A stretch of DNA of 64,000 nucleotides, taken from contig DAOVER010000003.1 of the NCBI GenBank assembly GCA_030668875.1, positions 3,395 to 67,394 of the forward strand. Reading direction: 5' to 3'. This document shows positions 2,821 through 52,730 of the stretch, one piece after another (the first letter of the stretch is position 1; each line of letters starts with the position of its first letter). This DNA is from Candidatus Heimdallarchaeota archaeon (GTDB taxonomy: Archaea > Asgardarchaeota > Heimdallarchaeia > Heimdallarchaeales > Heimdallarchaeaceae). The position numbers were made by a program, and so were the translations under genes. The notes under the pieces were generated by a model. That model was not told where the DNA came from, did no database searches, and saw nothing but the letters and a program-made list of their open reading frames with translations.

Positions 2821-3047
2821 TTTAAATTGTTTTCCTTGTCCCTTTATACTCATAAAGCAATTTTCACCTTGTGCATGTAAGTATTTTGATGTGTAATAAG
2901 AAATCTCACTTATCAATTGAAGCCACAAGATATCTTCAAATGAGGGCTTTTCTTGCTGTAGAAAAAAGTTTACAATAAGATAATTCAGTATCCATATTAA
3001 TAATGGATTCTGAGAAAAAACAATCTATGATGAATCCTTCTTCTCAA

Positions 3048-12071: not shown

Positions 12072-12160
12072 ATACTTGAGAAAGATGATTTCTTCTCTCT
12101 TATATTACCACTAATTTTATATTTAACTATGTTTCAGCTTTTTCGATTAGGTGACTTTTA

Positions 12161-12970: not shown

Positions 12971-13017
12971 TATTTTTGCTAATAACATTTAAAATAAACT
13001 AAAGAAATTTTCTCTCT

Positions 13018-13803: not shown

Positions 13804-13889
13804 AAGAAACAAATCCATCTCTCTGCTATTTCCAGATTCTTAATCGCTAGTTTACTTAAACACAGGAATTTCTTTGACAGAGGTAGAAT

Positions 13890-15206: not shown

Positions 15207-15245
15207 TAAACCTTTTCATACTTCTATAGCTAACTATTGTTTAAC

Positions 15246-23093: not shown

Positions 23094-24776
23094 TTATTCA
23101 AATTCCATTCTAGAGGAAACTTCTTTTTCTTCTTCTTCTTCAGATTCAGTTTTTTCTGTTTCTGCTTCCTCTATTATCTCTTCGATTACTTTCTCTTTCA
23201 GTTCCTTCTTAGGTTCTTTAAGATCACGTTTAAGTTCAAATTTAATCTCTTCCTTGATTTCTTCCTTGATTTCTTCAAGAATCGTTTCTTTGAGCTCTTC
23301 CATGCTTTCTTCTGTTTTCAGTTCCTTAGAGACTTCTCTCTTAACTTCTCTCTTTGGTTCTTCCTTGATTTCTTTTTTAACTTCTTTTTTGATTTCCTCA
23401 ATAACTTCTTCTTTCACTTCTTCCTTGATTTCTTCAATATCAGTCATTTCTGTTTCCTTCTCTTCTTCTTCTTTTTCCAATAAATCTAAATCTTCAAGCT
23501 GTTTTTCAACTTTAGCGTCTATTTCTTTTTCTTTCTTTTTATCATCGGTTTTTTCTTCAGATATAACGTTTTCAGCTTGTTCCTTTTTCTCTTCTTCTGT
23601 CTCTTCCTTATGTCCAAGTATGTCTTGCTTAACTTCTTCTTTAATCTGTTCTTTTAACGATTCATCTATTGCTATCATTTCTTTTTCTTCAATTTCTTCT
23701 TCAATAATATCTTCTTTTGCAATATCTTCGTCTTCTTTTTCATCGGCAGATTCATCAGTTTTTTCTTTGTCAATTATTTCTTTCTTTGGTTCTTCTTTGC
23801 GTTTAGCAATAAGTATTGGAAAAGTAATCTCACGATCTTCCAATAATTCAATAAAATATGAGTATAAACTTGAATGTTTGGTCGGCATATATATGATTAA
23901 TATTCCAACATCTTTTCCAAATGATGTAATTTCATCTTTGAATACTTCCATTTTATTTGTTGTAATAAGAAGGTACTCAATGAATCTTGATGCTTCTTTA
24001 AATACTTCAGAATTAGCTCGGTCAAACCTATCTAAATCTTCTTTATTCTTTTTAACAAATTCTGCGAATTCTTCCTCACTCTTGTCTTCATGGTAATTCT
24101 GATCAATATTAACTAAACAGTGAATCTCGCCTTTCTTTAGACTTAATGAGAGAGCTTTTTCAGTAAGATAACTCAATTGTAAACTGTTACTTGCCATAAT
24201 ACATGTATTTTTCCAAAGTAATTCCACGTTGATTTTATCACTTTGAATCAAAAGAACTGGAATTTCTTTTACTTCTTCTAAAAGATATTCAAAAATATCT
24301 CCCATAACGGTGATTCTGGCTTCAGATTCAATATCTCCCTCTTCGACTTGTGTTATTCCGATGAAGGATGAAGGCACAATTATTAATTCATAATCTCCTT
24401 CAGTCAAAATTGCATCTATGATGCTTTTCAGCATTTCCACACTCTCAATAACCTGTCCTTTTATCTCAAATTCCTCACTACGCAGATGTTCGTAAGCAAA
24501 TGAAAGTGAATCTTCGTAACTTTCCTTTGATGTTTTTGATACAGTAGAGGTGTTTTCGGTGTAAAAACAGACTACATCGATTTTAGTGCCAAAATGATGG
24601 TTTAATTGTTCTGCTACTAAGACTGAAGTTCTGGATTTTGATGTTCCATCAATTAATACTAGAGCCTTTTTAACAGGATCTTGTTGAGGTCTAACAGAAG
24701 GAAGTAATTCTGTGAATTTTTGCAATGTCTTTTCTATTGCTGTCTTCTGTTTATCTCTATCTTTAATGCTCATCAC
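23094..24776 (-). CDS. Tandem universal-stress-protein (USP)-like domains with a roughly 230-aa Glu/Lys-rich low-complexity C-terminal tail
   Basis: KALVLIDGTSKSRTSVLVAEQL and a second alpha/beta repeat; the tail is EEIKEEVKEEVIEEIKKEVKKEIKEEPKREVK... Confidence 0.45.
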   Translation of the reverse strand: MMSIKDRDKQKTAIEKTLQKFTELLPSVRPQQDPVKKALVLIDGTSKSRTSVLVAEQLNHHFGTKIDVVCFYTENTSTVSKTSKESYEDSLSFAYEHLRSEEFEIKGQVIESVEMLKSIIDAILTEGDYELIIVPSSFIGITQVEEGDIESEARITVMGDIFEYLLEEVKEIPVLLIQSDKINVELLWKNTCIMASNSLQLSYLTEKALSLSLKKGEIHCLVNIDQNYHEDKSEEEFAEFVKKNKEDLDRFDRANSEVFKEASRFIEYLLITTNKMEVFKDEITSFGKDVGILIIYMPTKHSSLYSYFIELLEDREITFPILIAKRKEEPKKEIIDKEKTDESADEKEDEDIAKEDIIEEEIEEKEMIAIDESLKEQIKEEVKQDILGHKEETEEEKKEQAENVISEEKTDDKKKEKEIDAKVEKQLEDLDLLEKEEEEKETEMTDIEEIKEEVKEEVIEEIKKEVKKEIKEEPKREVKREVSKELKTEESMEELKETILEEIKEEIKEEIKFELKRDLKEPKKELKEKVIEEIIEEAETEKTESEEEEEKEVSSRMEFE

Positions 24777-28799: not shown

Positions 28800-30272
28800 T
28801 CATAAGCATCTATCTACAGCTGAAGAACCCTTTTCATCATATTCTACTTTCGTTACCCAGAGGTTTCTTTCATTGAAAAGTTTCAAAGAAGCAAGAATTG
28901 AACCCCCTATCCAACTTTTGATTAATCTGTTTCTATCAGCTTTAACCTTAATTTCTATATGATTTGGAAGTTTGCTTCTAATATCTGAATAGAATCTTTC
29001 CTTGAAACCTCTATATAATGTGCCTCCACCAATTAGAACAATATTTGATAAAACAACTTTAAGTAAATCTGAATCGCATTTCTGAGCAGATTCTATTACG
29101 GCATCAGTTAGATCTCCAAGTTCTCCTGTTACACTTAAAGGTTCATTTCGGAATAGTATTTCAGGTGCTTTATACAAAATTTCTTCATATTTTACGAAAT
29201 CGTTATTGATGATATTTGCAGACCTTATCTGTCTATCTGTTTTCTGCCAAATCTGTTTTTCTTTCTTTGGGTTTTCAGAAACATAGCACAATTCTTCAGT
29301 AGCATATCGAATGTTGCTATCTATGATACTTTTTTGATTTGGGGTGCTTTTAGAATGAGCGATATGTTTGTTAGTATAGTCTTTCATCAATCTAGTAACA
29401 TCATTTGCTCCTGTATCTCGAATACTAACACTGTGAGTAATTAACCAACCATCGTAAATGGGAAGGATTCTAGTTGCTGAAGCCCCAATATTTACGATTA
29501 ATCCTGTTACATTTCCATCAGCATAAAGAGACAATAACTCTTTTATCGCAAAATACATCTTGGAAACGTTAAATTGGTCAAAAAGAACTCTAGCAATTTT
29601 CCTTCTAATTACCTTTGTTTGGTCATAAACTCCAACATAATCAAGCGCTTCTTCCTCACGAAGAATATTTTTTGCTTTTTCAGGTAACGTAGAATTGTTT
29701 ATCACATCCTTTTTTCCTTTAAGGGAATCAACATATTTGTCCATTTGTGGTCTCTCAAGAATCAGTATTGCTATCTTCGAAGGGTCTACTTCCATTTTCT
29801 CGAAGATATGACTAAAGAAAATCTCAAGATGTTTAAGGTCTATTTTCTCTTCAATAATGTCTGTATCAAGATAAATAGAAACTTTTTTGATAATTTTCTT
29901 CTTTGCTTTAATATTTGAATGTTGAATAAATGTATCTCCTTCTGCAGAATAAAATATTGTAGATTCAAAGATGTACCTCGGTTGATTTTCTCCTGCGAAC
30001 CCTACTTTGGTGAAGCTTGATCCTAAGTCAATTACCATAATTGTTGGGTTCTTTATTTTTTCAACCAATTGGACATTCTCTTCTAGAATCTTTAGACCTC
30101 TCTGTAATTTCATAAGATCAGTATTTTTCAAGAACTTCGAACATTGTTCACAATAATAACCAATTGTGATCCACTTGCGTTGTTCTGTTCCCTTCCTTAT
30201 ATAGACTCTTTGCATAGCTTTTCCACAATGTTTTGGTCTGGTTTTTTGCAGTTTTTCTGGCACTTTTTCCAC
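28800..30272 (-). CDS. Actin-family protein close to eukaryotic actin, with a Cys/His-containing N-terminal extension and altered phosphate-2 residues
   Basis: [23 protein letters not shown] matches actin [43 protein letters not shown] matches [48 protein letters not shown] matches [29 protein letters not shown]. Confidence 0.8.
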   Translation of the reverse strand: [490 protein letters not shown]

Positions 30273-30472: not shown

Positions 30473-31756
30473 TTGATAAGAATGGTTGATATCAAACCCT
30501 TTCGAGCAATAAGGTATACAGAAAAGGCGGGAGCCATAGAAAAACTGATTGTTCAGCCTTATGATAAGATAGATGAAGAAATGCAAGAAGCATATTATGC
30601 TCAATCAGAGTATAATTACAGCAGATTAACTCTTCCAAGTGAAGAGAACAGATATGAAATATCACGTCAAAGATTAGTAAAATGGTTGGAAGAAGGTATT
30701 CTAAAACAAGATGAAGTTCCTGGAATATACGTCTATTACCAAAAATATGAACTCTTTGGTAAAGAATACATAAGAAAAGGGTTCATTGGAGCATTAAAAT
30801 TACATCCTTTTGATGAAAATATAGTTCTTCCTCACGAAAAAACTCACAAAGGACCCAAGATTGACCGTCTGAATATGTTGAAAACAACCAGACACACTCT
30901 AGAAACAGGATTTATTCTGTATTCTGATTCAGAGAAAAAAACTATCAATCTTTTCGATGAAATTGCCCAAGGGGAACCTTTAATCGATGCTAAAGATGAT
31001 CTTGGAGTTCAAAATAAAATATGGAAAATGACTGATTCAGCACAAATAAGAATAGTTCAAGATGTATTCAAAGAACAGCAGTTAGTTATAGCTGATGGCC
31101 ACCATAGGTATGAAACTGCTATAACCTATCGTGATATGAGAAGAAAAGATGCTGGAGCTTTAAGAGATTATGATACCTTTGAATACCGTATGACATATCT
31201 AGTTCCCGTTGAAGATGAAGGTTTGATAATTTTAGCAACTCATCGTTGTTTGGCTAAAGAATCTGTCTCTGAAGAAAAAATGAGTGAACTTAAGCTTTTC
31301 TTCCATATGAATGAGATTATGAGATCTGAAATTCCCCAATTCTTAGAAGATAATAGAGATAAACGCGCTTTTGTTATGTATCAAGATAGAAGAGCAATCT
31401 CTATGATTATGAAGGATCCTTCTGCAATCAACAGATATGTGAGTGATGCCAGTGATGACTTCAAGACTCTAGATGTTGTTATCTTGCGAGATATGATTTT
31501 CCATGGTATTATGGGGCTTAAAGAACTCCACATTGATGATGATATTTTCTATGAGAGATGGTGGAATGAAGCCGTTGAAGAGGTAGACGCTGGAAAATAC
31601 AAGGTTGCTTTTATTCTAAACCCTACTAGTGCAGATGAAGTTCTCAAAGTTGCAAAGAACCATGAAAGAATGCCTCAAAAAGCAACAGATTTTTATCCAA
31701 AAATGATCAGTGGTTTTACAATGCTTAGTTTAGAAGATGGAGAAAAAATTCTCTAA
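30473..31756 (+). CDS. DUF1015/COG4198-like conserved protein
   Basis: IADGHHRYETA motif, recalled as characteristic of DUF1015. Confidence 0.35.
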   Translation: MIRMVDIKPFRAIRYTEKAGAIEKLIVQPYDKIDEEMQEAYYAQSEYNYSRLTLPSEENRYEISRQRLVKWLEEGILKQDEVPGIYVYYQKYELFGKEYIRKGFIGALKLHPFDENIVLPHEKTHKGPKIDRLNMLKTTRHTLETGFILYSDSEKKTINLFDEIAQGEPLIDAKDDLGVQNKIWKMTDSAQIRIVQDVFKEQQLVIADGHHRYETAITYRDMRRKDAGALRDYDTFEYRMTYLVPVEDEGLIILATHRCLAKESVSEEKMSELKLFFHMNEIMRSEIPQFLEDNRDKRAFVMYQDRRAISMIMKDPSAINRYVSDASDDFKTLDVVILRDMIFHGIMGLKELHIDDDIFYERWWNEAVEEVDAGKYKVAFILNPTSADEVLKVAKNHERMPQKATDFYPKMISGFTMLSLEDGEKIL

Positions 31757-31797: not shown

Positions 31798-32166
31798 TTA
31801 GAGATTAGCTCCACAATTTATGCAGAACTTTGTATCCATTTCATTCTTTCCACCACAATGGGAACAATACTTATTGTTTTGTGCTTGAGTAGTTGGTTGT
31901 TCTGTATTGAGTGGTTGGTAGTGAATTGGTTGTTGACCTCCACTGGGTTGGTGTCCTGTATGTGATATGATTGGAGTTTGTCTAGATCCTCGTCTTCTGC
32001 GTCTAATGATGTCAAATATTAGTATTATCGTAAATAAAACTCCAACCGCAAGCAGAGCTCCTCCAATTTCTGGGTCATAGAAAAGATAAATTATCCCAAA
32101 AATAATTAATGAAGGCGCACCAAAAATTATCCTTCGAAAGAAATAACGATTATGTCGACGATGCAT
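31798..32166 (-). CDS. Membrane protein with C-terminal zinc ribbon
   Basis: Two TM segments; C-terminal CSHCGGKNEMDTKFCINCGANL. Confidence 0.35.
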   Translation of the reverse strand: MHRRHNRYFFRRIIFGAPSLIIFGIIYLFYDPEIGGALLAVGVLFTIILIFDIIRRRRRGSRQTPIISHTGHQPSGGQQPIHYQPLNTEQPTTQAQNNKYCSHCGGKNEMDTKFCINCGANL

Positions 32167-32218
32167 GTATAACGATGCTATTCACTTTCTTTAAATATTA
32201 TGTAAGATTTTAATAAGT

Positions 32219-32470
32219 TCATCTTCCAAATTCAGCTTCAATTAAGCCAATTAATTCTCCAATGGTATTAAATTCTTTGAAAATATTCTTTGGTAGTTTA
32301 ACACCGAATTCATCCATTATTTTGATTCTAAGAATCTTCAAATCATTCTTATCCAATCCTAAATCCTTTTCAAAATATGTGTTGATTGTAAGGTTTTTCT
32401 TTTTAGCATCAGTCATCTCTAAAAGAAGTTTTGTAAACCTTCTATATATACTTGAATACATTGTTTTCAC
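32219..32470 (-). CDS. Acyl-carrier-protein-like 4-helix protein with Lys at the phosphopantetheine Ser position
   Basis: DLGLDKNDLKILRIKIMDEFGV aligns with ACP [22 protein letters not shown]; the start is 2 nt after the stop of the LLM gene. Confidence 0.4.
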   Translation of the reverse strand: MKTMYSSIYRRFTKLLLEMTDAKKKNLTINTYFEKDLGLDKNDLKILRIKIMDEFGVKLPKNIFKEFNTIGELIGLIEAEFGR

Positions 32471-32471
32471 T

Positions 32472-33404
32472 TCACATTATTTTTTCTGCAAACAATTTCA
32501 TTGGATTATCCACAATCTTGGATTTTCTAATCGCAATAACCATCTTTTGTATGCCCATTTCTTCAACTTTTGCTATCTGATTCGTTAGATCTTCTGTAAA
32601 ACCTATGAATGAGTTTCGAAGGATGTATTCTTCTGAGGGTTTTTTATCTTCAGGAGCTGCCTTGATTATTCTTTCAACAATTGCATCAAGCTCCTCTTGA
32701 GAATCTACAACATTGACTGTATTGAAGTAAGATATTTCAAAGTTTTCTACATCTCTGTGATATTTTTCTAAGTTTGCTTTAACTCTGCCAATTGTATTTG
32801 GTAGATCATCAATTTTTGTATAGGGTAAATTAATCCCATCTGCTTCTCTACAAGCTATATCCGTCATCCTCTTACTATCTGTTCCGAGAACAATTTGAGG
32901 ATGTGGTTTCTGAATAGGTTTAGGATAATTTCTATTGTTCTCAAGCTTCCAGAACTTACCTTCATAATCTGTAGAATCTTCCGTAAAAAGTTTCTTGTAG
33001 ATTGTAAGAGATTCTTCTAATTCATCTACTCTTCTCTTTGGATTTGGAAATGGATAACCATATGCTTTGTACTCTTCTTCATACCAACCTGCACCTAGCC
33101 ACAATAAAGCTCTTCCTTTAGAAATATGGTCAAGTGTGCTAATCATTTTTGCTAGATATGCCGGGTTTCGGAATGAATTACAAAGTACTATATGTCCTAA
33201 TTTAATTTTCTCCGTTTCGATTGCCAAAGCACTCATAAGCATTAGAGCTTCAAGATATGGTTCTTTCTTTTCTTGTTTCTCATCAAATCCTATAAGGTGG
33301 TCATTTACATGAGCAGACTCAAACCTTAGTTTTTCTGCTTTTATAGTTAAATCTCTTATGTCCTCATAATTATGAACTGATCGTACATAATATCCATACT
33401 TCAT
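32472..33404 (-). CDS. Luciferase-like (LLM) flavin/F420-dependent oxidoreductase
   Basis: TIM-barrel LLM-like sequence (..LRFESAHVNDHL.., ..LWLGAGW..); about 310 aa. Confidence 0.55.
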   Translation of the reverse strand: MKYGYYVRSVHNYEDIRDLTIKAEKLRFESAHVNDHLIGFDEKQEKKEPYLEALMLMSALAIETEKIKLGHIVLCNSFRNPAYLAKMISTLDHISKGRALLWLGAGWYEEEYKAYGYPFPNPKRRVDELEESLTIYKKLFTEDSTDYEGKFWKLENNRNYPKPIQKPHPQIVLGTDSKRMTDIACREADGINLPYTKIDDLPNTIGRVKANLEKYHRDVENFEISYFNTVNVVDSQEELDAIVERIIKAAPEDKKPSEEYILRNSFIGFTEDLTNQIAKVEEMGIQKMVIAIRKSKIVDNPMKLFAEKIM

Positions 33405-33594: not shown

Positions 33595-34038
33595 GTGACT
33601 AAATTGAGTGAAGAAAATAAATATACTAAAGTTAGCGATCTCTCCCCAAACGTCAGAGACATCAATCTTTTAGCAAAAATTGTAGCTCTTGGTGAAATAA
33701 GAGAAGTATCAAATAGAAACACAGGAGAAGAACACAAAGTTATGGATGTTCTCATCGCAGATGATACTGCAAAAGTTCTCTATTCAGCATGGAACGAGCA
33801 AATCGACACCATCAAGGAAGGTGAGACTTACCAATTCTTAAATGCAAAAACTATACTATTCCGTAGTCACATTAGACTATCTTTAGGCAGAAATGGAACA
33901 ATTGAAGAATCTGAGGAAAAGATAGAAGAAACTAATGATGAAATAGACATGTCAGAAAAAGAACATGAATATGAAAGAAGAGGATATAGGGGCGGCGGTG
34001 GCGGTTCTTATAACAGAAGACCTAGATACGACAGATAA
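33595..34038 (+). CDS. ssb: Single-stranded-DNA-binding OB-fold protein with RGG/Gly-rich C-terminal tail
   Basis: OB-fold-like core (VMDVLIADDTAKVLYSAWNEQ) and tail RRGYRGGGGGSYNRRPRYDR; TATA-like aagatataaaaag about 27 nt upstream of the GTG start. Confidence 0.55.
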   Translation: MTKLSEENKYTKVSDLSPNVRDINLLAKIVALGEIREVSNRNTGEEHKVMDVLIADDTAKVLYSAWNEQIDTIKEGETYQFLNAKTILFRSHIRLSLGRNGTIEESEEKIEETNDEIDMSEKEHEYERRGYRGGGGGSYNRRPRYDR

Positions 34039-34150
34039 AACGATCAGTGAAAGGTTTTTTAGAAAATCTTCCTAACGTTTTTTTATTTTCATTATTTACA
34101 TTATTCATTAAAGCTCATGAAAATTAATTATTGTTTAGTTATCACTATCT

Positions 34151-34975
34151 TCATTGTTTATCGTCTACATCACTACTGCTATTTCTATGTTTTCTATTAA
34201 CTTGTTGTGCAATTTTAGCTGCCATAGCTCCTGCACTTATCCCCCCATCAATATTAACTACCGCTATTCCAAGTGCACAACTTTGTAACATACTCATCAA
34301 CGCAGTTTCACCCTTTCCTCCAAAACCATATCCTGTTGATATGGGTAGTCCAATGACTGGGATATCAACTAAACCTGCTACAACCGTTGGTAATGCTCCT
34401 TCCATACCTGCAGCAACAATCAGAACATCAACATCCTTCTTTAGTAGATTGTTCAAGGGCTCAAACAAGCGATGAATACCTGCAACACCAACGTCATGGA
34501 TCATAAATACTTCACACCCCATCATCTCTGCAATTGCCTTAGCTTCCTCAGCTACAGGGATATCTGAAGTTCCAGCGGTAATTATACCTATCCTTCCATT
34601 TTCTTTGGATGGAATATAATTATGTTTTTTTATAATACAAAACTTTTTTCCAGTTCCATATTTCACAATAAAATCACTGCTGAATTCTGCTATTTTTGGG
34701 ATGTGTTCTTCTGTAAGTCTTGAGAGCAGTACAATATTCTTTTTTTCAAGAACTTTCTTAGTAATTTCAACAACCGTCTCAGGAGATTTTGTTTCTGAAT
34801 AGATTACTTCTGGAATTCCAGTTCTAGCTTCTCTAAAAATGTCGTATTTAGCAAACTCTTCAATAACCTCAATCTGATTTGAGTTTAGATAGTTCTCTGC
34901 TTCTTCAACTGAAATCTTTCCAGAAGCCAGTTGCTCAAGAATTTCTTTTCTATTCATGATTCTCAGTTCCTTCAT
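34151..34975 (-). CDS. larB: LarB-like nickel-pincer cofactor biosynthesis carboxylase/hydrolase (PurE fold)
   Basis: C-terminal PurE-like IGIITAGTSDIPVAEEA...VGVAGIHRL; overlaps the larC-like gene by 26 nt. Confidence 0.65.
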   Translation of the reverse strand: MKELRIMNRKEILEQLASGKISVEEAENYLNSNQIEVIEEFAKYDIFREARTGIPEVIYSETKSPETVVEITKKVLEKKNIVLLSRLTEEHIPKIAEFSSDFIVKYGTGKKFCIIKKHNYIPSKENGRIGIITAGTSDIPVAEEAKAIAEMMGCEVFMIHDVGVAGIHRLFEPLNNLLKKDVDVLIVAAGMEGALPTVVAGLVDIPVIGLPISTGYGFGGKGETALMSMLQSCALGIAVVNIDGGISAGAMAAKIAQQVNRKHRNSSSDVDDKQ

Positions 34976-36185
34976 AATACATGTTAACCAGCTTAATTTC
35001 TAATTCATTAATTGGGACCTTGGTTTCATTTGCAATACTTGCAATATCCTCAAATTCAGGTTTTACACCTACTATTTCTCCGTCTAACATCCTTTCCTTA
35101 AAACGACATTGGAAACCCTTTCCTTCTACAGTTATCTCCTTTGTGACTACTCTTCTTTCTAGTTCATATCGTCCAAATCTATCCTCTCTAACGCCCAAAG
35201 TACCGAGTTCTTTCATCATGAATTTAGCTAATATTGAGGCTTTATCTTCATCACAAATTACTCTTAAACACCAAGCAGGTCTGTTCTTCTTCATAATAAG
35301 AGGGTAATAGGAAACATCTAGTGCTCCATGTTCCATTAGTTTGCTAACAATTCCTCCTAGTATCTCACCCGATACATCATCTAGATGAGTTTCTAGCATT
35401 GAGAGATAGTGTTTTGAACTTTCTTTATGCAAATCAACGAGAAGTGTTCTCAAAACATTTGACCTTGATGGAATATCTTTATTGCCTGAACCATACCCAA
35501 TACTCTGAACTCTTAGGGGTGGAAGCTGATTGATTTGATTAGTTACTAATCCGCCTAAAAGAATTATTCCTGTAGGAGTCAATAACTCACCATCGACTTC
35601 ATCACTGAAAAATGAATATTCTAATTTCTGAAGAATTTCTAATACAGCTGGAGGTGGCACAGAAACTTTTCCATGTGAAAAAGTAATAAATCCGCTTCCT
35701 ACATTTACTGGAAGTCCATAGATTGGTATATCTAGTAAACCATGCTTTTCTAATAACCAAATTGTTCCAACTATGTCCAGTATTGTATCAACACTTGCAG
35801 TTTCGTGCAAATGTAATTTTTCAATAGATCCTCCATGAACCTTGGATTCAGCTTGAAAAAGCAGCTGTAACATTTGTTGAGCTTTGTTTTTTGCTACACC
35901 AGAAAGATTAAGATTGTCAAGAACCTTCTTTAAAGAATCCATTAGATCTGAAGCATGATGACTCTTCAGATCCTCTTCTATATCTATCACTAAATGAGTT
36001 GAATTAATTCCTTTTTTGAGTATTTTTTCAACTTTTACATTCATTTTTGTGGATAATGTTGTGTTAATTGATGAAACAAGTTCGTCTAAATTTTCCTTAC
36101 TTTCTGTCAGATCTAAGATGCTTGAAAGAAACATGTCTCCAGAGCAACCTGCGATTCTAGGGTCAATAATTAATGCTTTACTCAC
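34950..36185 (-). CDS. larC: LarC-like (DUF111) nickel insertion protein
   Basis: N-terminal IDPRIAGCSGDMFLSSI matches the LarC G(I/C)SGDM motif; about 410 aa. Confidence 0.65.
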   Translation of the reverse strand: MSKALIIDPRIAGCSGDMFLSSILDLTESKENLDELVSSINTTLSTKMNVKVEKILKKGINSTHLVIDIEEDLKSHHASDLMDSLKKVLDNLNLSGVAKNKAQQMLQLLFQAESKVHGGSIEKLHLHETASVDTILDIVGTIWLLEKHGLLDIPIYGLPVNVGSGFITFSHGKVSVPPPAVLEILQKLEYSFFSDEVDGELLTPTGIILLGGLVTNQINQLPPLRVQSIGYGSGNKDIPSRSNVLRTLLVDLHKESSKHYLSMLETHLDDVSGEILGGIVSKLMEHGALDVSYYPLIMKKNRPAWCLRVICDEDKASILAKFMMKELGTLGVREDRFGRYELERRVVTKEITVEGKGFQCRFKERMLDGEIVGVKPEFEDIASIANETKVPINELEIKLVNMYYEGTENHE

Positions 36186-36999
36186 TGTCTATCACATCTT
36201 GAGGTAAAGGAATATTCATGGAACCTTGCCTATACCCTTCTAAATCAATTGTTATGTAATGAAAGCCAAGTCTTCTAAGTTTCATCACTAACATCTCTCG
36301 TTTTTCTTCTTCTAGAAATATTCCCATTTCTGAAATAGGAACTTCTATTCTAGCAATATTTTCATGTGCTCTTAATCTTAATGTTGTGACTCCAAAGATT
36401 TCACGAATAATAATTTCAGCTTGTTCAATCTTCTCTAATGTTGTTTCTGATATTTGTTGACCATAAGGGATTCTTGTTGCTAAACATGTTGATGCAGGTT
36501 TTTTAACAATTTCTAGTTCCATCTTACTTGCGATTTGCTTAATTTCTTCTTTTGTTATATTCAATTCTAAATAGGGACTTTTTATCCCTAGTTCTTTGAC
36601 TGCCTTCAATCCTGGTCTGTAATCAGAGAGATCTGTTTCATTTGATCCTTCTACGATAATATCGTAATTATGACTTTGCACTTCTTTAATGATACTTTGG
36701 ATGATTAATGTTTTACAGTAATAACATCTATCAGGACTGTTTTCAGTAATTTTTGGATGTTTTAAGGGATTTACACTGATTATCCTGTACTTTATTCTTC
36801 TACTTGTTAAATATCCAATAGCATATTGTGTATCCTTAGCTGGTACTAGAGAAGACTTTACAATAACTGGTAAAACGCTTTGAGATGTTTTCCTAGCAAT
36901 TTCTAATAAAACTGTACTGTCTAAACCTCCTGAAAATGCTACAACAATATTCTTATCGTGAAAATATTCTTGAAGCTTATTAATGATCTCATTTACCAT
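36178..36999 (-). CDS. larE: LarE-like PP-loop ATP pyrophosphatase (sulfur transferase)
   Basis: VVAFSGGLDSTVLL (SGGxDS PP-loop); about 270 aa; overlaps the larC-like gene by 8 nt. Confidence 0.65.
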   Translation of the reverse strand: MVNEIINKLQEYFHDKNIVVAFSGGLDSTVLLEIARKTSQSVLPVIVKSSLVPAKDTQYAIGYLTSRRIKYRIISVNPLKHPKITENSPDRCYYCKTLIIQSIIKEVQSHNYDIIVEGSNETDLSDYRPGLKAVKELGIKSPYLELNITKEEIKQIASKMELEIVKKPASTCLATRIPYGQQISETTLEKIEQAEIIIREIFGVTTLRLRAHENIARIEVPISEMGIFLEEEKREMLVMKLRRLGFHYITIDLEGYRQGSMNIPLPQDVIDSE

Positions 37000-37253
37000 G
37001 TTTTTCAGATAATTTAACTTTGATGTGTTTTTATCTTCTATGTTTTGTCAAGATTTTAAAGACACAGTACTTGTTCCTCAATTACTTTTCTTTTCCCTAA
37101 TAAAATCCAAAATAATGAAAAGAAAAATCAGAAGAAACCAACTTAGAATCTACTTTTTTGAGTAATAAAATTATTCCGACAAAATTCAGTAGCCCCTTCC
37201 TATCATGCTAGTATTACACTATGTTATAAAAAGGTGGGACCTTCTGGTAATCT

Positions 37254-38003
37254 ATGCATGTCAATGTTATTTGTTATGTGAGAGTCAGTACAGCGGATCA
37301 AACATCAGGAAGAGATACGCAAATTGATGTAATAGAAAAGAAAATCCAATCTTTGGGTTATAGACATATTTTAGAAACCTTCATCGATGAAGATGTTTCT
37401 GGTGATAGCCATATAGAAGAAAGACCAGGATTCAAGAGCCTTCTAAGTTATGTTAAAGAGTTTAACAAAAGCAATCCTGGTAACACTGTGAAGGAAATAT
37501 GGGTTCAGACAAGAGATCGTATATCAAGAAACGTAGATATGCTTGGTTACGCTTCAGTTGTTTTAAGAGCGAATGGTGTTGAAATCAGAGCTACTGAAGA
37601 ATCAGATGAAATGCTGGTTACAAGGATCTACGATATGCTTGGAGAAGAAGAACTCAAGAAATACAAACTGAAAAGAATGTATGGAATCAAAAGGAGAATC
37701 CAAGATAATAAGATAATGTCAAGACCACCTTTGGGATACATAATCAATGATGGAAAACTCGAGATTGATGAAGAAATGCGACCTAAGTTAATCGAGATAT
37801 TCCAAATGTTTGAAGACAACGAAACAATGTCAAAAATAAGTAACAAATTCGAAATACCAAGAAGTACTTTAGCTTATTTGAGGAAGAATCCCATTTATCG
37901 AACTGGAGAATATTATTGGAAAGGAAAGATCGTTTATCAAGTAGAACCAGTACTTAAAGAAGGAGACTTAATAGAACGCGATGAAGACGATTTCTACTAT
38001 TGA
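37254..38003 (+). CDS. Serine recombinase (resolvase/invertase family)
   Basis: CYVRVSTADQ (catalytic Ser), DEDVSGDS...RPGFKSLLSYV, RDRISRN, and C-terminal HTH ISNKFEIPRSTLAYL. Confidence 0.7.
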   Translation: MHVNVICYVRVSTADQTSGRDTQIDVIEKKIQSLGYRHILETFIDEDVSGDSHIEERPGFKSLLSYVKEFNKSNPGNTVKEIWVQTRDRISRNVDMLGYASVVLRANGVEIRATEESDEMLVTRIYDMLGEEELKKYKLKRMYGIKRRIQDNKIMSRPPLGYIINDGKLEIDEEMRPKLIEIFQMFEDNETMSKISNKFEIPRSTLAYLRKNPIYRTGEYYWKGKIVYQVEPVLKEGDLIERDEDDFYY

Positions 38004-38118
38004 ATTTCAAATGATTGCAGGATAATTACTCGATCATTTGCTAATTTCATTTTTTCCTAATATTGCTTTTTTAGTTTTTTTCAGTAACATTTATGATATT
38101 TAGTTCTATTATCATCTT

Positions 38119-39258
38119 ATGAAGCTCAATAAAACTACACTTACAATTGCTATTATTGCGTCAATGGTGTTATTGAGTATTAGTTCAAAAGAGAGATTTG
38201 TTAATTTTACCTACGCTGTAGATTATGAAAATGATTGGCATCATCCATTAATACACAGTGAAGATGCTTGGGAAATAACTCAAGGAAGAAAGGATATCAT
38301 TGTCGCTGTCATAGATTCTGGTATTGACTTTTCTCATCCAGATCTCATTAATACTCAATGGATCAACACTGGAGAGATTGTAAATAATTCAATAGATGAT
38401 GACGGAAATGGTTATGTGGATGATGTGTATGGATGGGATTTTGTTAAAAATGACAGTACCCCCGGACCAGCTTCTGGTGATCCTGTGAATTGGCATGCAA
38501 CTTTCATTGCAGGAATTATTGCTGCACCTAAAGATGATCTTGGTGTAGTAGGTATTGCCCCTAATGTTACAATAATGAATGTCCGAGTTCTTGATGCATC
38601 AAACTTTCTCTATAGTTATGAAACTTTTGGTGCTGCAATAAGATATGCAGCTGAAAATGGTGCAGATATTATCAATTTGAGTATAATTGCTTCTACTAAT
38701 TCATCACTATATATGGATGAAATAGAGTACGCAAATAGCTTAAACATTCCAGTAGTAGCAGTAACTGGAAACAGTGAACTTTCTGTAGTAGCTTATCCTG
38801 CTAAAAGTGACAATGTAATCGCAGTAGGGGCTTCAAATCGTCACAATGAAAAAGCAGATTATAGTAACTATGGAGAAGAAACTGAACTTGTTGCTCCTGT
38901 TGGAGATTCTGATGAAACTAATATCATAAGTACTGTTCCGCCTGATAAATATGGGCTTGGATGGGGTACTTCCTTTGCGGCACCTCAGGTAGCTGCTACT
39001 ATAGCTTTGATGAAATCCCTAAATGATTCTCTATCAATTGCTGTGATTCGTGATATCTTACATAAATCCGCAAAAGACTTAGGTGATCCTGGGCATGATG
39101 TTGAAACTGGTTATGGCTTATTGAATGTTCTAAGAGCAGTTCAGGCTGTATTAGATCCATCTATACTCCTGCTTCCTGATGACAGCAACTATCAGTTTTT
39201 AGCGATTCTTCCAATATTAACACTCATCACAATAGTAGTTTTTAGAAAAAGAAAATAA
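38119..39258 (+). CDS. Subtilisin-like S8 serine protease, secreted, with C-terminal TM anchor
   Basis: VAVIDSGID (Asp), NWHATFIAG (His), VTGNSE (oxyanion Asn), GTSFAAPQVAA (Ser); signal peptide and C-terminal hydrophobic segment. Confidence 0.8.
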   Translation: MKLNKTTLTIAIIASMVLLSISSKERFVNFTYAVDYENDWHHPLIHSEDAWEITQGRKDIIVAVIDSGIDFSHPDLINTQWINTGEIVNNSIDDDGNGYVDDVYGWDFVKNDSTPGPASGDPVNWHATFIAGIIAAPKDDLGVVGIAPNVTIMNVRVLDASNFLYSYETFGAAIRYAAENGADIINLSIIASTNSSLYMDEIEYANSLNIPVVAVTGNSELSVVAYPAKSDNVIAVGASNRHNEKADYSNYGEETELVAPVGDSDETNIISTVPPDKYGLGWGTSFAAPQVAATIALMKSLNDSLSIAVIRDILHKSAKDLGDPGHDVETGYGLLNVLRAVQAVLDPSILLLPDDSNYQFLAILPILTLITIVVFRKRK

Positions 39259-39287
39259 TAGAACAGGAAGAATAAAAAGAGAGTGTT

Positions 39288-41120
39288 TTACAACCTTCTT
39301 TTGAAGAAATCGATGAAATGGTTGAAGGTTCGGATTCTCATTCCAATATCAGAGAAAGCACCGTGACCTTCATCAGTAAATTCGACATACTCGAATGTCT
39401 TTTCTCCTTCAGATGCTTCCTTCCAACCCATCTCTATGAGTTTGTCTCTGAATTGTCTACTCTCTTCAACTGGACATCGAGGGTCATTCACACCATGAAT
39501 CATTTGAATTGGAACTTTAATATTATCTATAAAATTCATAGCAGAACCATTTTTCCAAACCTCTTTGTTTTCTTCATAAGATCCTAGATGTTGAATAAGG
39601 AAGTATTGGAAATGAGGTTTAGATTTGTCAAACATTGTTTTTAGATCAGAAATACCTATCCATGCAGAACCAGTTTTCCATCCTTCATCAGCAAATTTTG
39701 TTAATTGGATGAATGTCATAAATCCACCGTATGATCCACCAAAAACACCAATTCTATCTGGGTCAACATAGTCTAATTTTTCTAGATATTTCTTTGCCCA
39801 AACAACATCTTTTCCGTCTCCTCCGCCCCAATCTTTTAGATTGAGTTCCATGAATTCCTTTCCATAACCAGTACTGCCTCTGATGTTTGGATTAAGAATA
39901 ACAAACCCTTCATGAGCAAATACTTGAGAAAACATATCGAACATTTGGAAGTATTGACTGGTTGGTCCTCCATGAACATTAACTAACGCAGGATATTTTT
40001 TACCTGATTCAAGTTTAGGTGTATAGAGGGTAGCAGCAATTTCTCTTTCATCAAAAGACGGGTATTTGATATACTGTTGCCTATAGAAGTCATCTGCGTC
40101 TAAATCAGTTTGAGGTGGAATCAAGATTTTCTCTTCACCATTTTCTATGTCATACCTTCCTAAAATCATAGGTGTTTCAGAATCCATCCTCATGTAAACA
40201 AGATATTTATCATTCAGACACCAACGAGCATTGTATGTAAGCCCTTTGAACCCTAGTTCTTTTACATCTCCAGATTCAACATTATATATACTTGGTATTA
40301 ACTCTGCTTCATGATTTTTTAAGACTATTAACTTTTTACTGTCATCTGAGAATAAGATGGGATTTTCTTCATGTTTCCCTTCTCCTAACCACTTGATTTG
40401 GTTAGTTTCAAGATTATAAAGACCAGTAGTTACTATCCCAGTTTGATCACTTGATATTGCTAGGTATTTACCATCTTTACTTACATGGCTGAAGGAATCA
40501 TTAGAATCGTCAGAGATATTGACTAATTTTTTAATCTCACTACCATCCTCTTTGATTGCCCAAATATCAGTATTTTTCACGTTGTAAGTTTCGTTATAAT
40601 TGAAATAGATCCAACCATTTTTTGCCCATTCAGCAAGACCCCAAACAGGTTTATCAAAAGCAGTCAGTTGCAGTACTTCTTTAGTTTCGAGATCTAAGGT
40701 AAATAGATTCATTTGGTCATGCCTGTTTGAAGAGAAAAGAAGCTTCTTTCCATCAGGACTCACATCTATGGGATATTCCATAGCCTCTGGTGTATCTGTA
40801 AGTTGAATGCTTTCTTTAGTCTCAGTGTTGAAAAGAAAGATATTATGTTGTTCATCTCCATCTACATCACGAGTATAGGTTATGTGAATATCATCTTTTA
40901 ACCAAATGTAACCTGCTCGAATAGCTTTAGGAAGCTCACCATCAGTAATTTGACTATATTCTAAAGTTGCCGGATCTAAAATATAAAACTCCTGTCTTTT
41001 TGTTTTATTCCAGTAAAAACTTATTTTATCTCTTTTATTATTAGCCGATATGAACGAAAAACTAGGGATGGAAGCTAGTTTTTCTAATGTAATTTCTTTA
41101 ACCATAATTATCAAACACAA
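39288..41120 (-). CDS. S9 family peptidase (acylaminoacyl-peptidase / dipeptidyl-peptidase-like): beta-propeller plus alpha/beta hydrolase
   Basis: GVFGGSYGGFMT (GxSxGG nucleophile), later Asp and His (HGVNDPRCP, EGHG); N-terminal TolB-like propeller repeats. Confidence 0.75.
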   Translation of the reverse strand: MCLIIMVKEITLEKLASIPSFSFISANNKRDKISFYWNKTKRQEFYILDPATLEYSQITDGELPKAIRAGYIWLKDDIHITYTRDVDGDEQHNIFLFNTETKESIQLTDTPEAMEYPIDVSPDGKKLLFSSNRHDQMNLFTLDLETKEVLQLTAFDKPVWGLAEWAKNGWIYFNYNETYNVKNTDIWAIKEDGSEIKKLVNISDDSNDSFSHVSKDGKYLAISSDQTGIVTTGLYNLETNQIKWLGEGKHEENPILFSDDSKKLIVLKNHEAELIPSIYNVESGDVKELGFKGLTYNARWCLNDKYLVYMRMDSETPMILGRYDIENGEEKILIPPQTDLDADDFYRQQYIKYPSFDEREIAATLYTPKLESGKKYPALVNVHGGPTSQYFQMFDMFSQVFAHEGFVILNPNIRGSTGYGKEFMELNLKDWGGGDGKDVVWAKKYLEKLDYVDPDRIGVFGGSYGGFMTFIQLTKFADEGWKTGSAWIGISDLKTMFDKSKPHFQYFLIQHLGSYEENKEVWKNGSAMNFIDNIKVPIQMIHGVNDPRCPVEESRQFRDKLIEMGWKEASEGEKTFEYVEFTDEGHGAFSDIGMRIRTFNHFIDFFKRRL

Positions 41121-44384: not shown

Positions 44385-45848
44385 TTGAATTTCTTAGCTG
44401 GGGTTACTTTGACAATTACTGAATTGAGAGATGAAACGGAGGAAGATCAACCAAAAGAAATGAAGAGGATTGTAACGTTAGATTTCCTAAGAGGTGTGGC
44501 AATCTTTGCAGTTATTTTCATTCATTCCTTCCAGTATCTTTATGACTATACTTGGATTATAGAAGACCCCTCTCTTGTTCTGGAATTTCCTATACCTTTT
44601 CTCATCATAGCTGGTGTTTTAGGATATTTCGGACTTTGGGTTGCTTTCTTCATCTTGATTTCAGGAACAGTTAATGCTTATGTAATGACACGAAAAGCTG
44701 TATCTATAAAGAAAAGGCACGTTATTTTAACCAAGCAATTAGTAACAGGTGTCTTCATTTTAATTCTTGGTTATATTAAGGAAGCTTTCTTTTATTGGGG
44801 ATATATTGGACACTCTTTTAGATCTGGAGATTGGACTAATTTCTATCCTCTTTGGAGTTCATTGTTCGAAATGAAACCTCTTCAAATAATCGGTTGGACG
44901 ATGATTATTAATGGATTTATTCACTATTTACTAATGTTAAGAGATGGTCATAAGAAGTACATTAGAAACATGATACTATATGGTTTGTTTATCCTAATTG
45001 TTCTGGTATTAACACCTTTCCTTCAGAGTTGGGCAAAATCTATTTACTCTGACTGGGGTTCCATTACTTGGAGTAATTTGTCTCCTTATATTGAGCATTG
45101 GGGGCGTGATGGATGGCCAAACCATCATCTGGCTACGGCAAATGCTTCGTTTCCAATTTGGTTTTTGACTTTAATTACTGGTGAAAATCAACCTCTATTT
45201 CCGTTTTTAGCAACTTCATTTGCGGGTTCTATGATTGGTATTTCTCTTGCTAAACCAAACCAAAGAAAGCTCTTCCCATTATGGGGTGGTGTCGCTGGTT
45301 TAACATGTATCTTAACAGGTGTTTTGTTAGGTGTTTTTGGAGTTCCTTTTACATTTGTATCAACACCTCCTGCGATTCCAACATATCTTGTACATCTTGG
45401 AGGACAAACAATTGTTCTGATGGTTTTTCTAGGCTTAGTAGAATTCAGAGGACGTGGAAAAATTTTCGCTAATCGAAAAACAGTGAAATTCTTTCGGTTA
45501 TGGTCAATGGTTTCATTGACAGTTTTTATGACTGATTTGTATTTTTATGTGCCAAGATATTTCCTTTCATTAATATTGGATATTTTCACGGAATACAATA
45601 TTATGGAAGATGGAATATTCACAGATGTTGAGGGACTTCCATGGGTTTTGTTAGTATCTTTTGTAGTTCTGTTATTCTATGAACTTCTTGTCTGGGTGTG
45701 GAGTAAACTGAATTTTGTTGGAACAGCTGAATGGATGCTAATCCAGATGCAAGGTAAGTTAACAGGACAGAAGTCATCAAGATTAGATGTGAAAACTATG
45801 ATGAACAAGGTTCACTGGGTTAATTTTCCAAAAAGCAAAAAGTTGTAG
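44385..45848 (+). CDS. DUF1624 / HGSNAT-like membrane acyltransferase family protein
   Basis: LDFLRGVAIFAVIFIHS N-terminal motif; 10 or more TM segments. Confidence 0.4.
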   Translation: MNFLAGVTLTITELRDETEEDQPKEMKRIVTLDFLRGVAIFAVIFIHSFQYLYDYTWIIEDPSLVLEFPIPFLIIAGVLGYFGLWVAFFILISGTVNAYVMTRKAVSIKKRHVILTKQLVTGVFILILGYIKEAFFYWGYIGHSFRSGDWTNFYPLWSSLFEMKPLQIIGWTMIINGFIHYLLMLRDGHKKYIRNMILYGLFILIVLVLTPFLQSWAKSIYSDWGSITWSNLSPYIEHWGRDGWPNHHLATANASFPIWFLTLITGENQPLFPFLATSFAGSMIGISLAKPNQRKLFPLWGGVAGLTCILTGVLLGVFGVPFTFVSTPPAIPTYLVHLGGQTIVLMVFLGLVEFRGRGKIFANRKTVKFFRLWSMVSLTVFMTDLYFYVPRYFLSLILDIFTEYNIMEDGIFTDVEGLPWVLLVSFVVLLFYELLVWVWSKLNFVGTAEWMLIQMQGKLTGQKSSRLDVKTMMNKVHWVNFPKSKKL

Positions 45849-49788: not shown

Positions 49789-50340
49789 GTGACCAACTCT
49801 GAATTCATTTTCAAAATCACTCTTATTGGTGACGGTGCCGTAGGTAAAACTTCTATTCGTCATCGTTACATGGGTTATGGTTTCAAAGAGTCACATTTGA
49901 TGACTTTAGGTGCAGATTTCAGTGTGATTGATAAGGAATTTAGAGAAGGTGAAACTTGGACTTATCAGATCTGGGACATTGCCGGACAGAAAATATTCGA
50001 AGAAATCAGGTCTAGATTCTATAAAGGTAGTATGGGTGCATTGGTCGTTTTTGACGTGACTGATAAGCAAACACTCCGTAATTGTCTTTCTTGGGTTAAG
50101 GAACTTTATCGTTTTTCAGGTAGTGATGCAATACCTGTTGTTTTATTAGCTAACAAATCTGATTTACGAAATCGCAAAAGTGTTGATATGAAAAAGGCTC
50201 ATAAGTTTGTGAAGATTCTAAATGAAGGAACAGCTAGTTATGGTTTTACTAATCATGTTCTAGAAACAAGTGCAAAAACAGGACTTAACATTGAAACAGC
50301 TTTCAAGTTGCTAGGTGATGCAATCCGGGCAAGATTTTAA
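49789..50340 (+). CDS. Ras-superfamily small GTPase (Rab/Ras-like)
   Basis: G1 LIGDGAVGKTS, G2 Thr in LMTLGADF, G3 WDIAGQ, G4 NKSDL, G5 ETSAK. Confidence 0.8.
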   Translation: MTNSEFIFKITLIGDGAVGKTSIRHRYMGYGFKESHLMTLGADFSVIDKEFREGETWTYQIWDIAGQKIFEEIRSRFYKGSMGALVVFDVTDKQTLRNCLSWVKELYRFSGSDAIPVVLLANKSDLRNRKSVDMKKAHKFVKILNEGTASYGFTNHVLETSAKTGLNIETAFKLLGDAIRARF

Positions 50341-50407: not shown

Positions 50408-50971
50408 ATGGCTTACAAGATTCTTATACTTGGAGATTATGGTGTCGGAAAAACATCTCTTTACAATTACTACAAAGATAATGCTCCTGAAGCACAAGAA
50501 AAACCTGCTTTAAAGGTTAAATTACTTGAAATAAACAGAAGAATAGATGGAGAAGAAACTATCATTCATCTTTGTGATATCCCTGCTAAAGAATTATCTC
50601 CAATTAATAGACCCAAATTATATAAAAGAACTGTAGGAGCAATAATTTTGTTCGATATTAGTCGTCCAGATACTTTTAGACATGCACTATTTTGGATAGA
50701 AGAACTAATGAATTACAATGGTTTTGGTAAAGTTCCTATTGCTTTGCTAGGTAATAAAACCGATATAAGACATTCAAGTGAAAGAGTATTGAACCCCATT
50801 GATGCACAACAATTTATCTATAGATTAAACCGTTCCGCTAAAGCTTCAGGAACTAATATTGACAGCTCCTTCCATGAAATGTCAACAAAAGCAAAAGAAG
50901 CAAAAGGTTTGTTAGGTATTCTTGACCAGCTGATTAGAGCAATTATCAAACATAATGTTGAGAAGAAATAA
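50408..50971 (+). CDS. Divergent small GTPase (P-loop and NKxD present, switch II degenerate)
   Basis: ILGDYGVGKTSL, GNKTD and EMSTKA, but DxxGQ is replaced by LCDIPAKE. Confidence 0.55.
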   Translation: MAYKILILGDYGVGKTSLYNYYKDNAPEAQEKPALKVKLLEINRRIDGEETIIHLCDIPAKELSPINRPKLYKRTVGAIILFDISRPDTFRHALFWIEELMNYNGFGKVPIALLGNKTDIRHSSERVLNPIDAQQFIYRLNRSAKASGTNIDSSFHEMSTKAKEAKGLLGILDQLIRAIIKHNVEKK

Positions 50972-50983
50972 AAGCGTGTTTTT

Positions 50984-51565
50984 ATGTATCCCCTCGCTCA
51001 TATAGGTTACACATTATTTCTTGTAGAATTAGTTTTTATTTTCACTTATATTTTCCAAAAACTGAGAAATAGAGATCGAGTTACAATTCAATGGGGTATT
51101 AGATATGTTTCTTTGTACGCATTGTTATTGGGGTCATTAGGTCCTGATATTATAGACAAAGCAATATCCTTACCAATTACGGGAAATGGAAGATATGTTG
51201 GGCATTCTTTGCTCTTTAATGTAGTAATTTCGCTGAGTGTTCTTGCAATATTCTGGAAAAATAAACGAATCTGGATAGGATTCATTGTTGGATGGCAAAT
51301 GCATATTCTCTTGGATTTAGGTGGTTTCATACCTTGGTTATTTCCATTCGTAAACTATGAATTTCCAGAGAGAGTACATACATTTTGGGAAATGCTCCAA
51401 CTTCCTTCAGTTTATCTCAATGAGATATTCGGTTCTTTATGTTTGATTCTTCTGATTATGCTTTATTTACATAGAAAAATACCTGTACGAAACATGCTAA
51501 AAGAGGATTTCTTTAAACACCCTTCTTATCTCAAACCTATCGACAAAAATGGGAAAAATATTTAG
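50984..51565 (+). CDS. Membrane protein, possibly DUF457/YdjM-like metal-dependent hydrolase
   Basis: N-terminal MYPLAHIGYTLFL and several His residues in TM context; weak. Confidence 0.25.
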   Translation: MYPLAHIGYTLFLVELVFIFTYIFQKLRNRDRVTIQWGIRYVSLYALLLGSLGPDIIDKAISLPITGNGRYVGHSLLFNVVISLSVLAIFWKNKRIWIGFIVGWQMHILLDLGGFIPWLFPFVNYEFPERVHTFWEMLQLPSVYLNEIFGSLCLILLIMLYLHRKIPVRNMLKEDFFKHPSYLKPIDKNGKNI

Positions 51566-52730
51566 GGTAGATTCGATTATAGGATTCATGGATTCTTATG
51601 TTAAAAAGATTAGAGAAGAATCACCCACATTACAGAACCACATTTATCTTAACCATGCTTCAACTGGACCCTTACATGGTCTAACTTTAGAAGCTCTCAA
51701 AAAATTCTCCCTTCACTGGGCAGAGTCAGATTTTGAAGAAGTTGATGCAGCCTGTAAAAATGTTAAAACTCAATTTGCTAAATTGATTAACGCTTCAGCT
51801 GAAGAAATTGTTTTTACTCCTGATGTTACTCATGGGACAAAACTAGCTGTGAATATGCTAGAATATGACGAAAAGAGCAATATTGTTTGTTACTGGAATG
51901 ACTATCCTGGGCAAGTTTACGAGGCACTATATCTAAAAGAGAAAAAAAATGTTGAATATCGACCTGTTCCAGATAAAAAGAATGAGATATTAGTTGAGGG
52001 ATTTGCTGATAGAATAGATAAAAACACGAAAATAGTACTACTATCCCATGTTCAATGGCTCTCAGGTTATAGATCAAACGTGAAAGAAATAGCGAAAATA
52101 GCACATGAAAACGGAGCATACATTTTAGTAGATTCCATTCAATCCACTGGTGCTTTAGTTAATGATGTGAAAGATTGGGATATAGACTTTCTAACTTGTG
52201 GAGTTGCTAAATGGTTACTAGGACCCAATCACAAAGGTCTATTTTACATCAATAAGAAATTGATTGATGAATTTTATCCCCCCTTTGCAGGATACCATGG
52301 AACGGATTTAGGATCACGGGAGGAACCTTACTGGAATGTAAACAAATTAGAATTCTTACCTTCAGTTGATAAATTCATGGATACAAACCCTGGAACCTTG
52401 TTATATTATGTTGCAGATGCAGGAATGAAAATACTTCTAGACTATGGTGCAGATAAGATAGAGGAAAGAATAATGCAACTAACTGATTACTTATTTGAGA
52501 AACTAGAAGAGCTGAAAAATACTGAATTAATAACTTCAAGAAATGAAGAGAATCGATCAGGAATAGTTAATGTACGAATTCAAAATAACGTTGAAATAGT
52601 TAAGAAATTGAAAGAGAAGAAAATGATTGTATCGAGTCGCTATGGTGGAATAAGAATAAGCCCTCACTTCTATAACATCGAGGAAGATATAGATAGTTTA
52701 ATTGAACTGATAAAACAACATCAAAGTTAG
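51549..52730 (+). CDS. Class V aminotransferase / cysteine-desulfurase-family PLP enzyme
   Basis: NHASTGPL; LVDSIQSTGAL..DFLTCGVAKWLLGPNHKGLFY (PLP-Lys region). Confidence 0.6.
   Translation: MGKIFRVDSIIGFMDSYVKKIREESPTLQNHIYLNHASTGPLHGLTLEALKKFSLHWAESDFEEVDAACKNVKTQFAKLINASAEEIVFTPDVTHGTKLAVNMLEYDEKSNIVCYWNDYPGQVYEALYLKEKKNVEYRPVPDKKNEILVEGFADRIDKNTKIVLLSHVQWLSGYRSNVKEIAKIAHENGAYILVDSIQSTGALVNDVKDWDIDFLTCGVAKWLLGPNHKGLFYINKKLIDEFYPPFAGYHGTDLGSREEPYWNVNKLEFLPSVDKFMDTNPGTLLYYVADAGMKILLDYGADKIEERIMQLTDYLFEKLEELKNTELITSRNEENRSGIVNVRIQNNVEIVKKLKEKKMIVSSRYGGIRISPHFYNIEEDIDSLIELIKQHQS

Follow-up and report, generated by a model that had tools for sequence, protein, structure and literature searches.

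Can a cluster of larE, larC and larB genes that stands apart from any larA supply an Asgard archaeon with nickel-pincer nucleotide (NPN) as a cofactor, and which enzyme would then use the product? The question is raised by a stretch of 64 000 nucleotides (nt) of contig DAOVER010000003.1 (assembly GCA_030668875.1) from a Candidatus Heimdallarchaeota archaeon of the family Heimdallarchaeaceae, hereafter the window, in which a preliminary description had recognized three overlapping minus-strand open reading frames (ORFs) as larE, larC and larB. It can be stated with high confidence that these genes make the nickel-pincer cofactor and that the apo-enzyme using it is encoded outside the 64-kb window.

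The coordinates of the three ORFs were recovered exactly. [quoted passage not shown] Families were assigned with NCBIfam equivalog models and their curated cutoffs, together with Pfam. LarE scores 267.9 bits against TIGR00268 (cutoff 150) over profile positions 7-259 of 259, and LarB 256.6 bits against NF033503 (cutoff 175). LarC reaches 362 bits against the Ni_insertion family PF01969, covering 373 of the 375 profile positions, as well as 155.9 bits for the LarC1 model (TIGR00299; cutoff 90) and 118 bits for the LarC2 model (NF052512; cutoff 50). The three proposed identities are borne out, all exceeding the equivalog cutoffs, and the motifs on which they had been based were located at LarE residues 23-28 (the PP-loop SGGLDS), LarC residues 11-18 (IAGCSGDM) and LarB residues 129-265 (an AIRC/PurE-like domain).

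A reading of the genes as a purine-biosynthetic PurE and a QueC/ThiI-type PP-loop enzyme is so improbable as to be negligible. Weak matches to purE, QueC, NAD synthase and MnmA do occur below threshold, as shared folds would give, but the purE and QueC models stay far under their curated cutoffs (46.4 versus 149.6 bits and 21.7 versus 150.3 bits, respectively), in contrast to the 256-268 bits obtained with the Lar models, and a full-length LarC sits between the two genes. The preliminary description had named a reassignment to PurE/PurK or QueC/ThiI as the outcome that would overturn it; given these sub-cutoff scores, it was dropped. The closest solved structures are those of LarE from Lactiplantibacillus plantarum (5udq, 125 bits), LarB from the same species (7mj0, 170 bits) and LarC from Moorella thermoacetica (12bi, 152 bits); the third structural match of LarE, 8cnz, bears no annotation beyond that of an NAD_synthase domain-containing protein. 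Among database proteins, LarC is 90% identical to the LarC of Ca. Heimdallarchaeota 7H_bin4 and 80-81% identical to those of two other metagenome-assembled genomes (MAGs), its close relatives bearing the NCBI name 'nickel pincer cofactor biosynthesis protein LarC [Candidatus Heimdallarchaeaceae archaeon]', and an identical LarC protein is present in both NCBI and Logan.

The cluster encodes the same three enzymes, and the same predicted route from NaAD to NPN, as the lar operon of L. plantarum (larA-larB-larC1/C2-larD-larE), from which it differs in its gene order, in the absence of larA and larD from the window and in a LarC that is one continuous frame here and two ORFs joined by a frameshift there. 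In the first step, LarB would carboxylate NaAD at C5 of the ring and hydrolyse off AMP to give P2CMN. Its Cys233 aligns with Cys221 of L. plantarum LarB, a conserved catalytic residue that, in work ascribed to Rankin and colleagues in 2021, reportedly attacks C4 of the pyridinium ring. LarE would then adenylylate both carboxylates and turn them into thiocarboxylates, LarC would insert nickel in a CTP-dependent reaction in which the C-Ni bond is formed, and the finished cofactor would be passed to an apo-enzyme encoded beyond the window.

The conserved residues of LarE indicate by which of two known chemistries the sulfur would be delivered. Besides keeping the PP-loop, the protein has Thr175, Arg208 and Arg210 where the L. 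plantarum enzyme has its proposed binding residues for the substrate phosphate. The sacrificial, L. plantarum type of enzyme is marked by a cysteine, its only sulfur donor, at position 176, with which, in the alignment to 5udq, Thr171 of the present protein is matched, Cys172 following one residue later. The [4Fe-4S], Thermotoga maritima type is marked by a CXXC...C ligand motif, and this is what the only three cysteines of LarE, Cys92, Cys95 and Cys172, form. In the T. maritima enzyme, Cys92, Cys95 and Cys172 hold a [4Fe-4S] cluster and the enzyme is catalytic rather than sacrificial (PMC9283937); the likeness extends to the SGGXDS loop, to the identical cysteine positions and to the displacement of the third cysteine by one residue from L. 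plantarum Cys176 (PMC9283937). On the other hand, the fourth, adjacent cysteine of that protein (Cys174) has no counterpart here, the host is an archaeon and the cluster is predicted from the motif. Because the CXXC...C motif and the one-residue shift are those of T. maritima LarE, the archaeal enzyme most likely works catalytically through a [4Fe-4S] cluster on Cys92, Cys95 and Cys172, which a cysteine desulfurase would recharge, and not through a sacrificial cysteine. For this LarE, 'sacrificial sulfur transferase', as NCBIfam calls the product, is therefore probably a misnomer.

In LarC, the alignment to 12bi places His77, His117, His125, His127 and His171 at the positions of M. thermoacetica His72, His108, His116, His118 and His160, and Asp17, Glu113, Glu128, Asp133, Asp137 and Glu200 at those of Asp15, Glu104, Glu119, Asp124, Asp128 and Glu187. 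All but one of the seven pocket residues tested are thus kept, the exception being Arg71, which is His76 here. Both the cluster of histidines and the pocket of acidic residues are essential in the M. thermoacetica enzyme, and the five histidines are conserved in position relative to the L. plantarum protein (PMC13510736). The M. thermoacetica protein, which is known from cryo-EM, is likewise a LarC1-LarC2 fusion; overall similarity to it is modest (152 bits).

No gene for the user of the cofactor lies in the window. Pfam scans of every ORF of at least 150 aa in the 64 kb found no Lar_N or LarA_C domain (PF09861/PF21113), nor any aldo-keto reductase (AKR; PF00248) or ornithine cyclodeaminase domain. 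A tblastn search with L. plantarum LarA (a query matching PDB 5HUQ at 100%) gave no match at E<=1 over 19 related loci, and no LarA was seen in the neighbourhood of a Thorarchaeota LarC. The preliminary description had reported no LarA within 10 kb of the cluster; the absence in fact extends over 34 kb to one side of it and ~31 kb to the other. Such an arrangement is not exceptional. Genomes with larB, larE and larC and no larA make up ~15% of those surveyed, most cyanobacteria being an example (PMC11796402), and clusters devoid of LarA within 20 ORFs of LarC have been mined, leading to the AKR-fold nickel-pincer enzyme NphT (PMC13524815). The present locus resembles these in having the biosynthetic trio and no larA within 20 ORFs; it differs in that nothing lar-specific adjoins it, while the published cases show either an adjacent AKR candidate or a genome-wide absence of larA (PMC11796402, PMC13524815).

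Since LarA homologues occur in seven of the eight Asgard genomes in COG, at a mean of 2.8 per genome (PMC11770544, Table S1), an unlinked LarA homologue is the likeliest user, and by this analogy the cofactor probably serves at least one 2-hydroxyacid racemase or epimerase of the LarA family. The suggestion in the preliminary description that an unlinked racemase or epimerase, or an unrecognised acceptor, takes up the cofactor is hence sensible, yet it restates a general phenomenon that had already been published.

It is unlikely that the acceptor lies elsewhere on a different scaffold, be it an NphT-type AKR, an ornithine cyclodeaminase using a dinucleotide cofactor or a scaffold of unknown kind, in an organism devoid of any LarA homologue. 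Such a user would agree with the absence of LarA from the 64 kb, with the ~15% of genomes that carry larBCE and no larA (PMC11796402) and with the two non-LarA nickel-pincer enzyme families to which genomic-context logic has led (PMC13524815, which cites for the second of them an ornithine cyclodeaminase employing a dinucleotide variant of the cofactor, NPAD). However, LarA homologues are usual in Asgard genomes, the AKR and ornithine cyclodeaminase domains are missing from the window ORFs scanned and the nearby oxidoreductases (a luciferase-like oxidoreductase, LLM, an ApbA protein and a 2-hydroxyacid dehydrogenase) are part of a syntenic backbone, of which a relative without lar genes at this locus (L015, discussed below) also has at least the LLM and ApbA genes.

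Some observations weigh against the view that the cluster makes the cofactor for a LarA-type enzyme encoded elsewhere. The tblastn search with LarA 5HUQ returned no match at E<=10 in the window, and LarA is also absent from the Logan contig L016, which overlaps the high-coordinate end and reaches ~4.4 kb past it, as judged by gene content. There is no linked nickel transporter or clear cysteine desulfurase; the product of the nearest class-V aminotransferase gene (51549-52730) reaches no more than 114.8 bits with the SufS model, for which the cutoff is 475. Moreover, a LarA user in this organism is a prior and not an observation.

The arrangement of the three genes suggests joint expression in the order larE-larC-larB. 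The GTG start codon of larC shares 8 nt, GTGAGTAA, with the stop codon of larE, as read from the sequence. Overlaps of 8 and 26 nt had been described, and both are present, the second with a proviso: the larC/larB overlap amounts to 26 nt when larB is taken from its first ATG, but a second in-frame ATG at 34957 would give a product of 268 aa and again an 8-nt overlap with larC (ATGAATAG), and this second codon is where larB starts among the genes called independently on the Logan assembly (268 aa). With larB starting at 34957, 8 nt would be shared at both junctions, which suggests coupled translation. The lar junctions are tight in relatives too, with overlaps of <=32 nt or gaps of <=10 nt. 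Upstream, larE and a divergent resolvase gene share an AT-rich intergenic region of 254 base pairs (37000-37253), presumed to be an archaeal promoter region, with a candidate TATA-like element, TTTAAAAT, on the minus strand at 37060-37053, ~57 nt upstream of the larE ATG. A scan for bacterial-type promoters and terminators gave counts at or below chance, its model not being applicable to an archaeal host.

Downstream of larB, comparison with related loci points to a deletion. In relatives with 58-80% LarC identity (L006/L007, L008 and L013), a divergent resolvase gene, replaced by an S8 peptidase gene in L008, is followed by larE-larC-larB and then by a gene for a short-chain dehydrogenase/reductase (SDR) of 263-264 aa, which overlaps larB by ATGA or lies within ~40 nt of it. 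Next come genes for a membrane protein of 525-547 aa, a DUF1684 protein and a PAS-like protein of ~295 aa, and after these genes for a single-stranded DNA-binding (SSB)-like OB-fold protein, a luciferase-like oxidoreductase and an acyl carrier protein (ACP)-like protein, joined by DUF1015 and actin genes in L006 and L008. In L006, L008 and L013 (GCA_054385855.1, GCA_030603365.1 and GCA_013166775.1, respectively) the lar genes have the same order and overlapping junctions as in the window; the SSB-like and LLM genes are shared with all three, the resolvase with L006 and L013 and the S8 peptidase with L006 and L008. Unlike in these loci, the SSB-like gene of the window follows larB after 112 nt.

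Nucleotide homology to L005 ends at position 11998 of that locus, near the 3' end of larB, and restarts at 14523, shortly after the PAS-like gene has reached its stop codon (14514). What is left of the SDR gene is a scar on the minus strand (34128-34154) consisting of six SDR codons followed by AAA CAA TAA. The first part, ATGAAGATAGTGATAACT (34154-34137), encodes MKIVIT, to be compared with MKVVIT for codons 1-6 of the SDR of relatives (aligned to L003, L005 and L006), and its ATG and the larB TGA overlap in precisely the manner seen in the SDR-carrying relatives. The same larB-SSB junction is found in an independently assembled Logan contig. Judged by this synteny, the four genes for the SDR, membrane, DUF1684 and PAS-like proteins have evidently been lost, a span of ~4 kb on the L006 map (12032-16110). 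The two breakpoints have a short similar sequence in common, through which the deletion possibly took place.

The lost SDR itself deserves consideration as a local user of the cofactor, the loss of which would have orphaned the cluster. Its gene overlaps or closely trails larB in L003, L005-L008 and L013, where LarC identity falls as low as 58%, a truncated copy does the same in L004 and only the six codons remain in the window; in addition, NAD(P)H oxidoreductase is the annotation of many genes next to lar (PMC13524815). Nevertheless, the gene occurs at the same syntenic spot in L015 with no lar genes beside it, a homologue lies in an unrelated context on the Promethearchaeota contig L014, and larECB of Ca. 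Heimdallarchaeum endolithica is not accompanied by the SDR. The protein retains TGxxxGxG, NNAG and YxxxK, the classical motifs of dinucleotide binding, the family is broad among Asgard archaea and eukaryotes and is annotated as chlorophyll(ide) b reductase-like, and the gene is cut short in L004 and, in L005, interrupted by an in-frame stop. A role of the SDR as the missing acceptor is thus very unlikely and was set aside, on account of its occurrence without lar in L015 and L014 and of its full set of NAD(P)-binding motifs; an unlinked enzyme of the LarA family is preferred as the user.

As regards the SDR family in its own right (L006 12032-12823 and homologues), it occurs widely among Heimdall-, Hod- and Promethearchaeota, and its nearest non-archaeal relatives are eukaryotic proteins bearing the annotation of NYC1/NOL-like chlorophyll(ide) b reductases (41-47% identity; for example in Balamuthia, Kipferlia and plants). 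The in-frame stop of the L005 gene (12032-12823) falls at codon 130, and the L004 gene (12032-12238) matches the L006 SDR over the first 44 residues only, inside an ORF of 68 aa; these defects are either repeated gene decay or MAG errors.

Whether the lar cluster is itself on its way out can be judged from its pattern of substitution. The ratio of nonsynonymous to synonymous substitution rates (dN/dS) for larE, larC and larB is 0.07-0.17 relative to L006 and L003, which is purifying selection. Decay to a relic heading for loss would fit the four-gene deletion that adjoins the cluster, the divergence of the larB C-terminal tail beside the breakpoint and the existence of L015, which has no lar genes at the locus. 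Against this, all three ORFs are intact and keep their catalytic residues, the dN/dS values are low, and the same junction appears in the independently assembled Logan contig, so that ongoing decay is extremely unlikely; by the measure of its coding sequence, the cluster is under purifying selection and alive.

The lar genes may also have a population history that differs from that of their surroundings. Their G+C content, overall and at third codon positions (GC3), equals that of neighbouring genes and of the genomic background. Synonymous divergence (dS) was compared across loci L003-L006 for the lar genes and for the flanks at 33595-34038 and 37254-41120 of the window; as the values were obtained by the Nei-Gojobori method (NG86) from MAGs with saturated sites, their direction is reliable and their magnitudes are not. 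Between the group formed by the window and L003 and the group formed by L004, L005 and L006, lar dS is 0.9-2.7, as opposed to 0.28-0.64 for the S9 peptidase, resolvase and SSB-like genes and 0.70 for the SDR, while inside each group lar and flank dS are alike (0.27-0.84). The locus L015 (GCA_029856355.1, JAHQWT010000012.1, 4883-14737) carries resolvase, S8 peptidase, SDR, SSB-like, LLM, ACP-like and DUF1015 genes and no lar genes. Because it keeps the backbone without lar, the cluster is a presence/absence polymorphism at this site. Two deeply diverged lar haplotypes and a lar-less locus suggest that larECB is exchanged as a cassette by recombination among these archaea. The stronger, joint proposition that the cassette is exchangeable and that its cofactor serves a non-LarA user on a scaffold not yet tied to nickel is rather improbable.

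The divergent neighbour of larE, a serine-resolvase-like gene (37254-38003, plus strand, 249 aa; PF00239, E = 4e-17), adjoins larE in L001, L002, L004-L007, L009, L010 and L013, the exception among the recovered upstream flanks being L008. It is present in the lar-less L015 as well, with 94-98% amino-acid identity among relatives and a dN/dS of 0.05. Its interpretation as the mark of a mobile element carrying lar is unsupported, given its conservation even without lar and the background-like GC and GC3 of the lar genes; by its conservation it looks like a host gene outside the pathway.

Further from the cluster, a conserved block (31798-33404, minus strand, and 30473-31756, plus strand) encodes a luciferase-like oxidoreductase, an 83-aa ACP-like protein, a zinc-ribbon protein and a DUF1015 protein. 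The oxidoreductase matches best the F420-dependent model TIGR03560, at 196.6 bits and under its cutoff of 231.4. The block is syntenic in relatives with contigs long enough, the zinc-ribbon gene being uncalled in L008 and L015. An actin-family protein (28800-30272, minus strand, 490 aa) scores 203 bits against PF00022 and is 48% identical to its L008 counterpart, and the window further contains three Ras-family small GTPase genes (49789-50340 and 50408-50971, plus strand; 58098-58658, minus strand) and a gene for a TATA-binding protein (2245-2928, minus strand). The actin-family, Ras-family and TATA-binding protein genes fit an Asgard archaeon, such eukaryote-signature genes being typical there. 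Three ORFs, at 23094-24776 (minus strand), 44385-45848 (plus strand) and 59810-60877 (plus strand), with 560, 487 and 355 aa, matched no Pfam family at E<=0.001, and an Rfam scan of the full 64 kb returned no family at its gathering score.

The locus represents a known system and is an ordinary example of it. Its analysis adds the Fe-S class of LarE, a caveat on the larB start codon, the deletion scar and a cassette-like population structure, and leaves knowledge of the pathway unchanged. The LarA-less arrangement is documented, common and already exploited to discover nickel-pincer enzymes. For the organism, the analysis means that a Heimdallarchaeaceae genome encodes the full predicted nickel-pincer cofactor pathway, its LarE being placed in the catalytic, Fe-S class, a result of little importance beyond annotation, whereas the recent four-gene deletion with its six-codon scar and the divergent lar haplotypes may be of interest for the genome dynamics of uncultured Asgard archaea.

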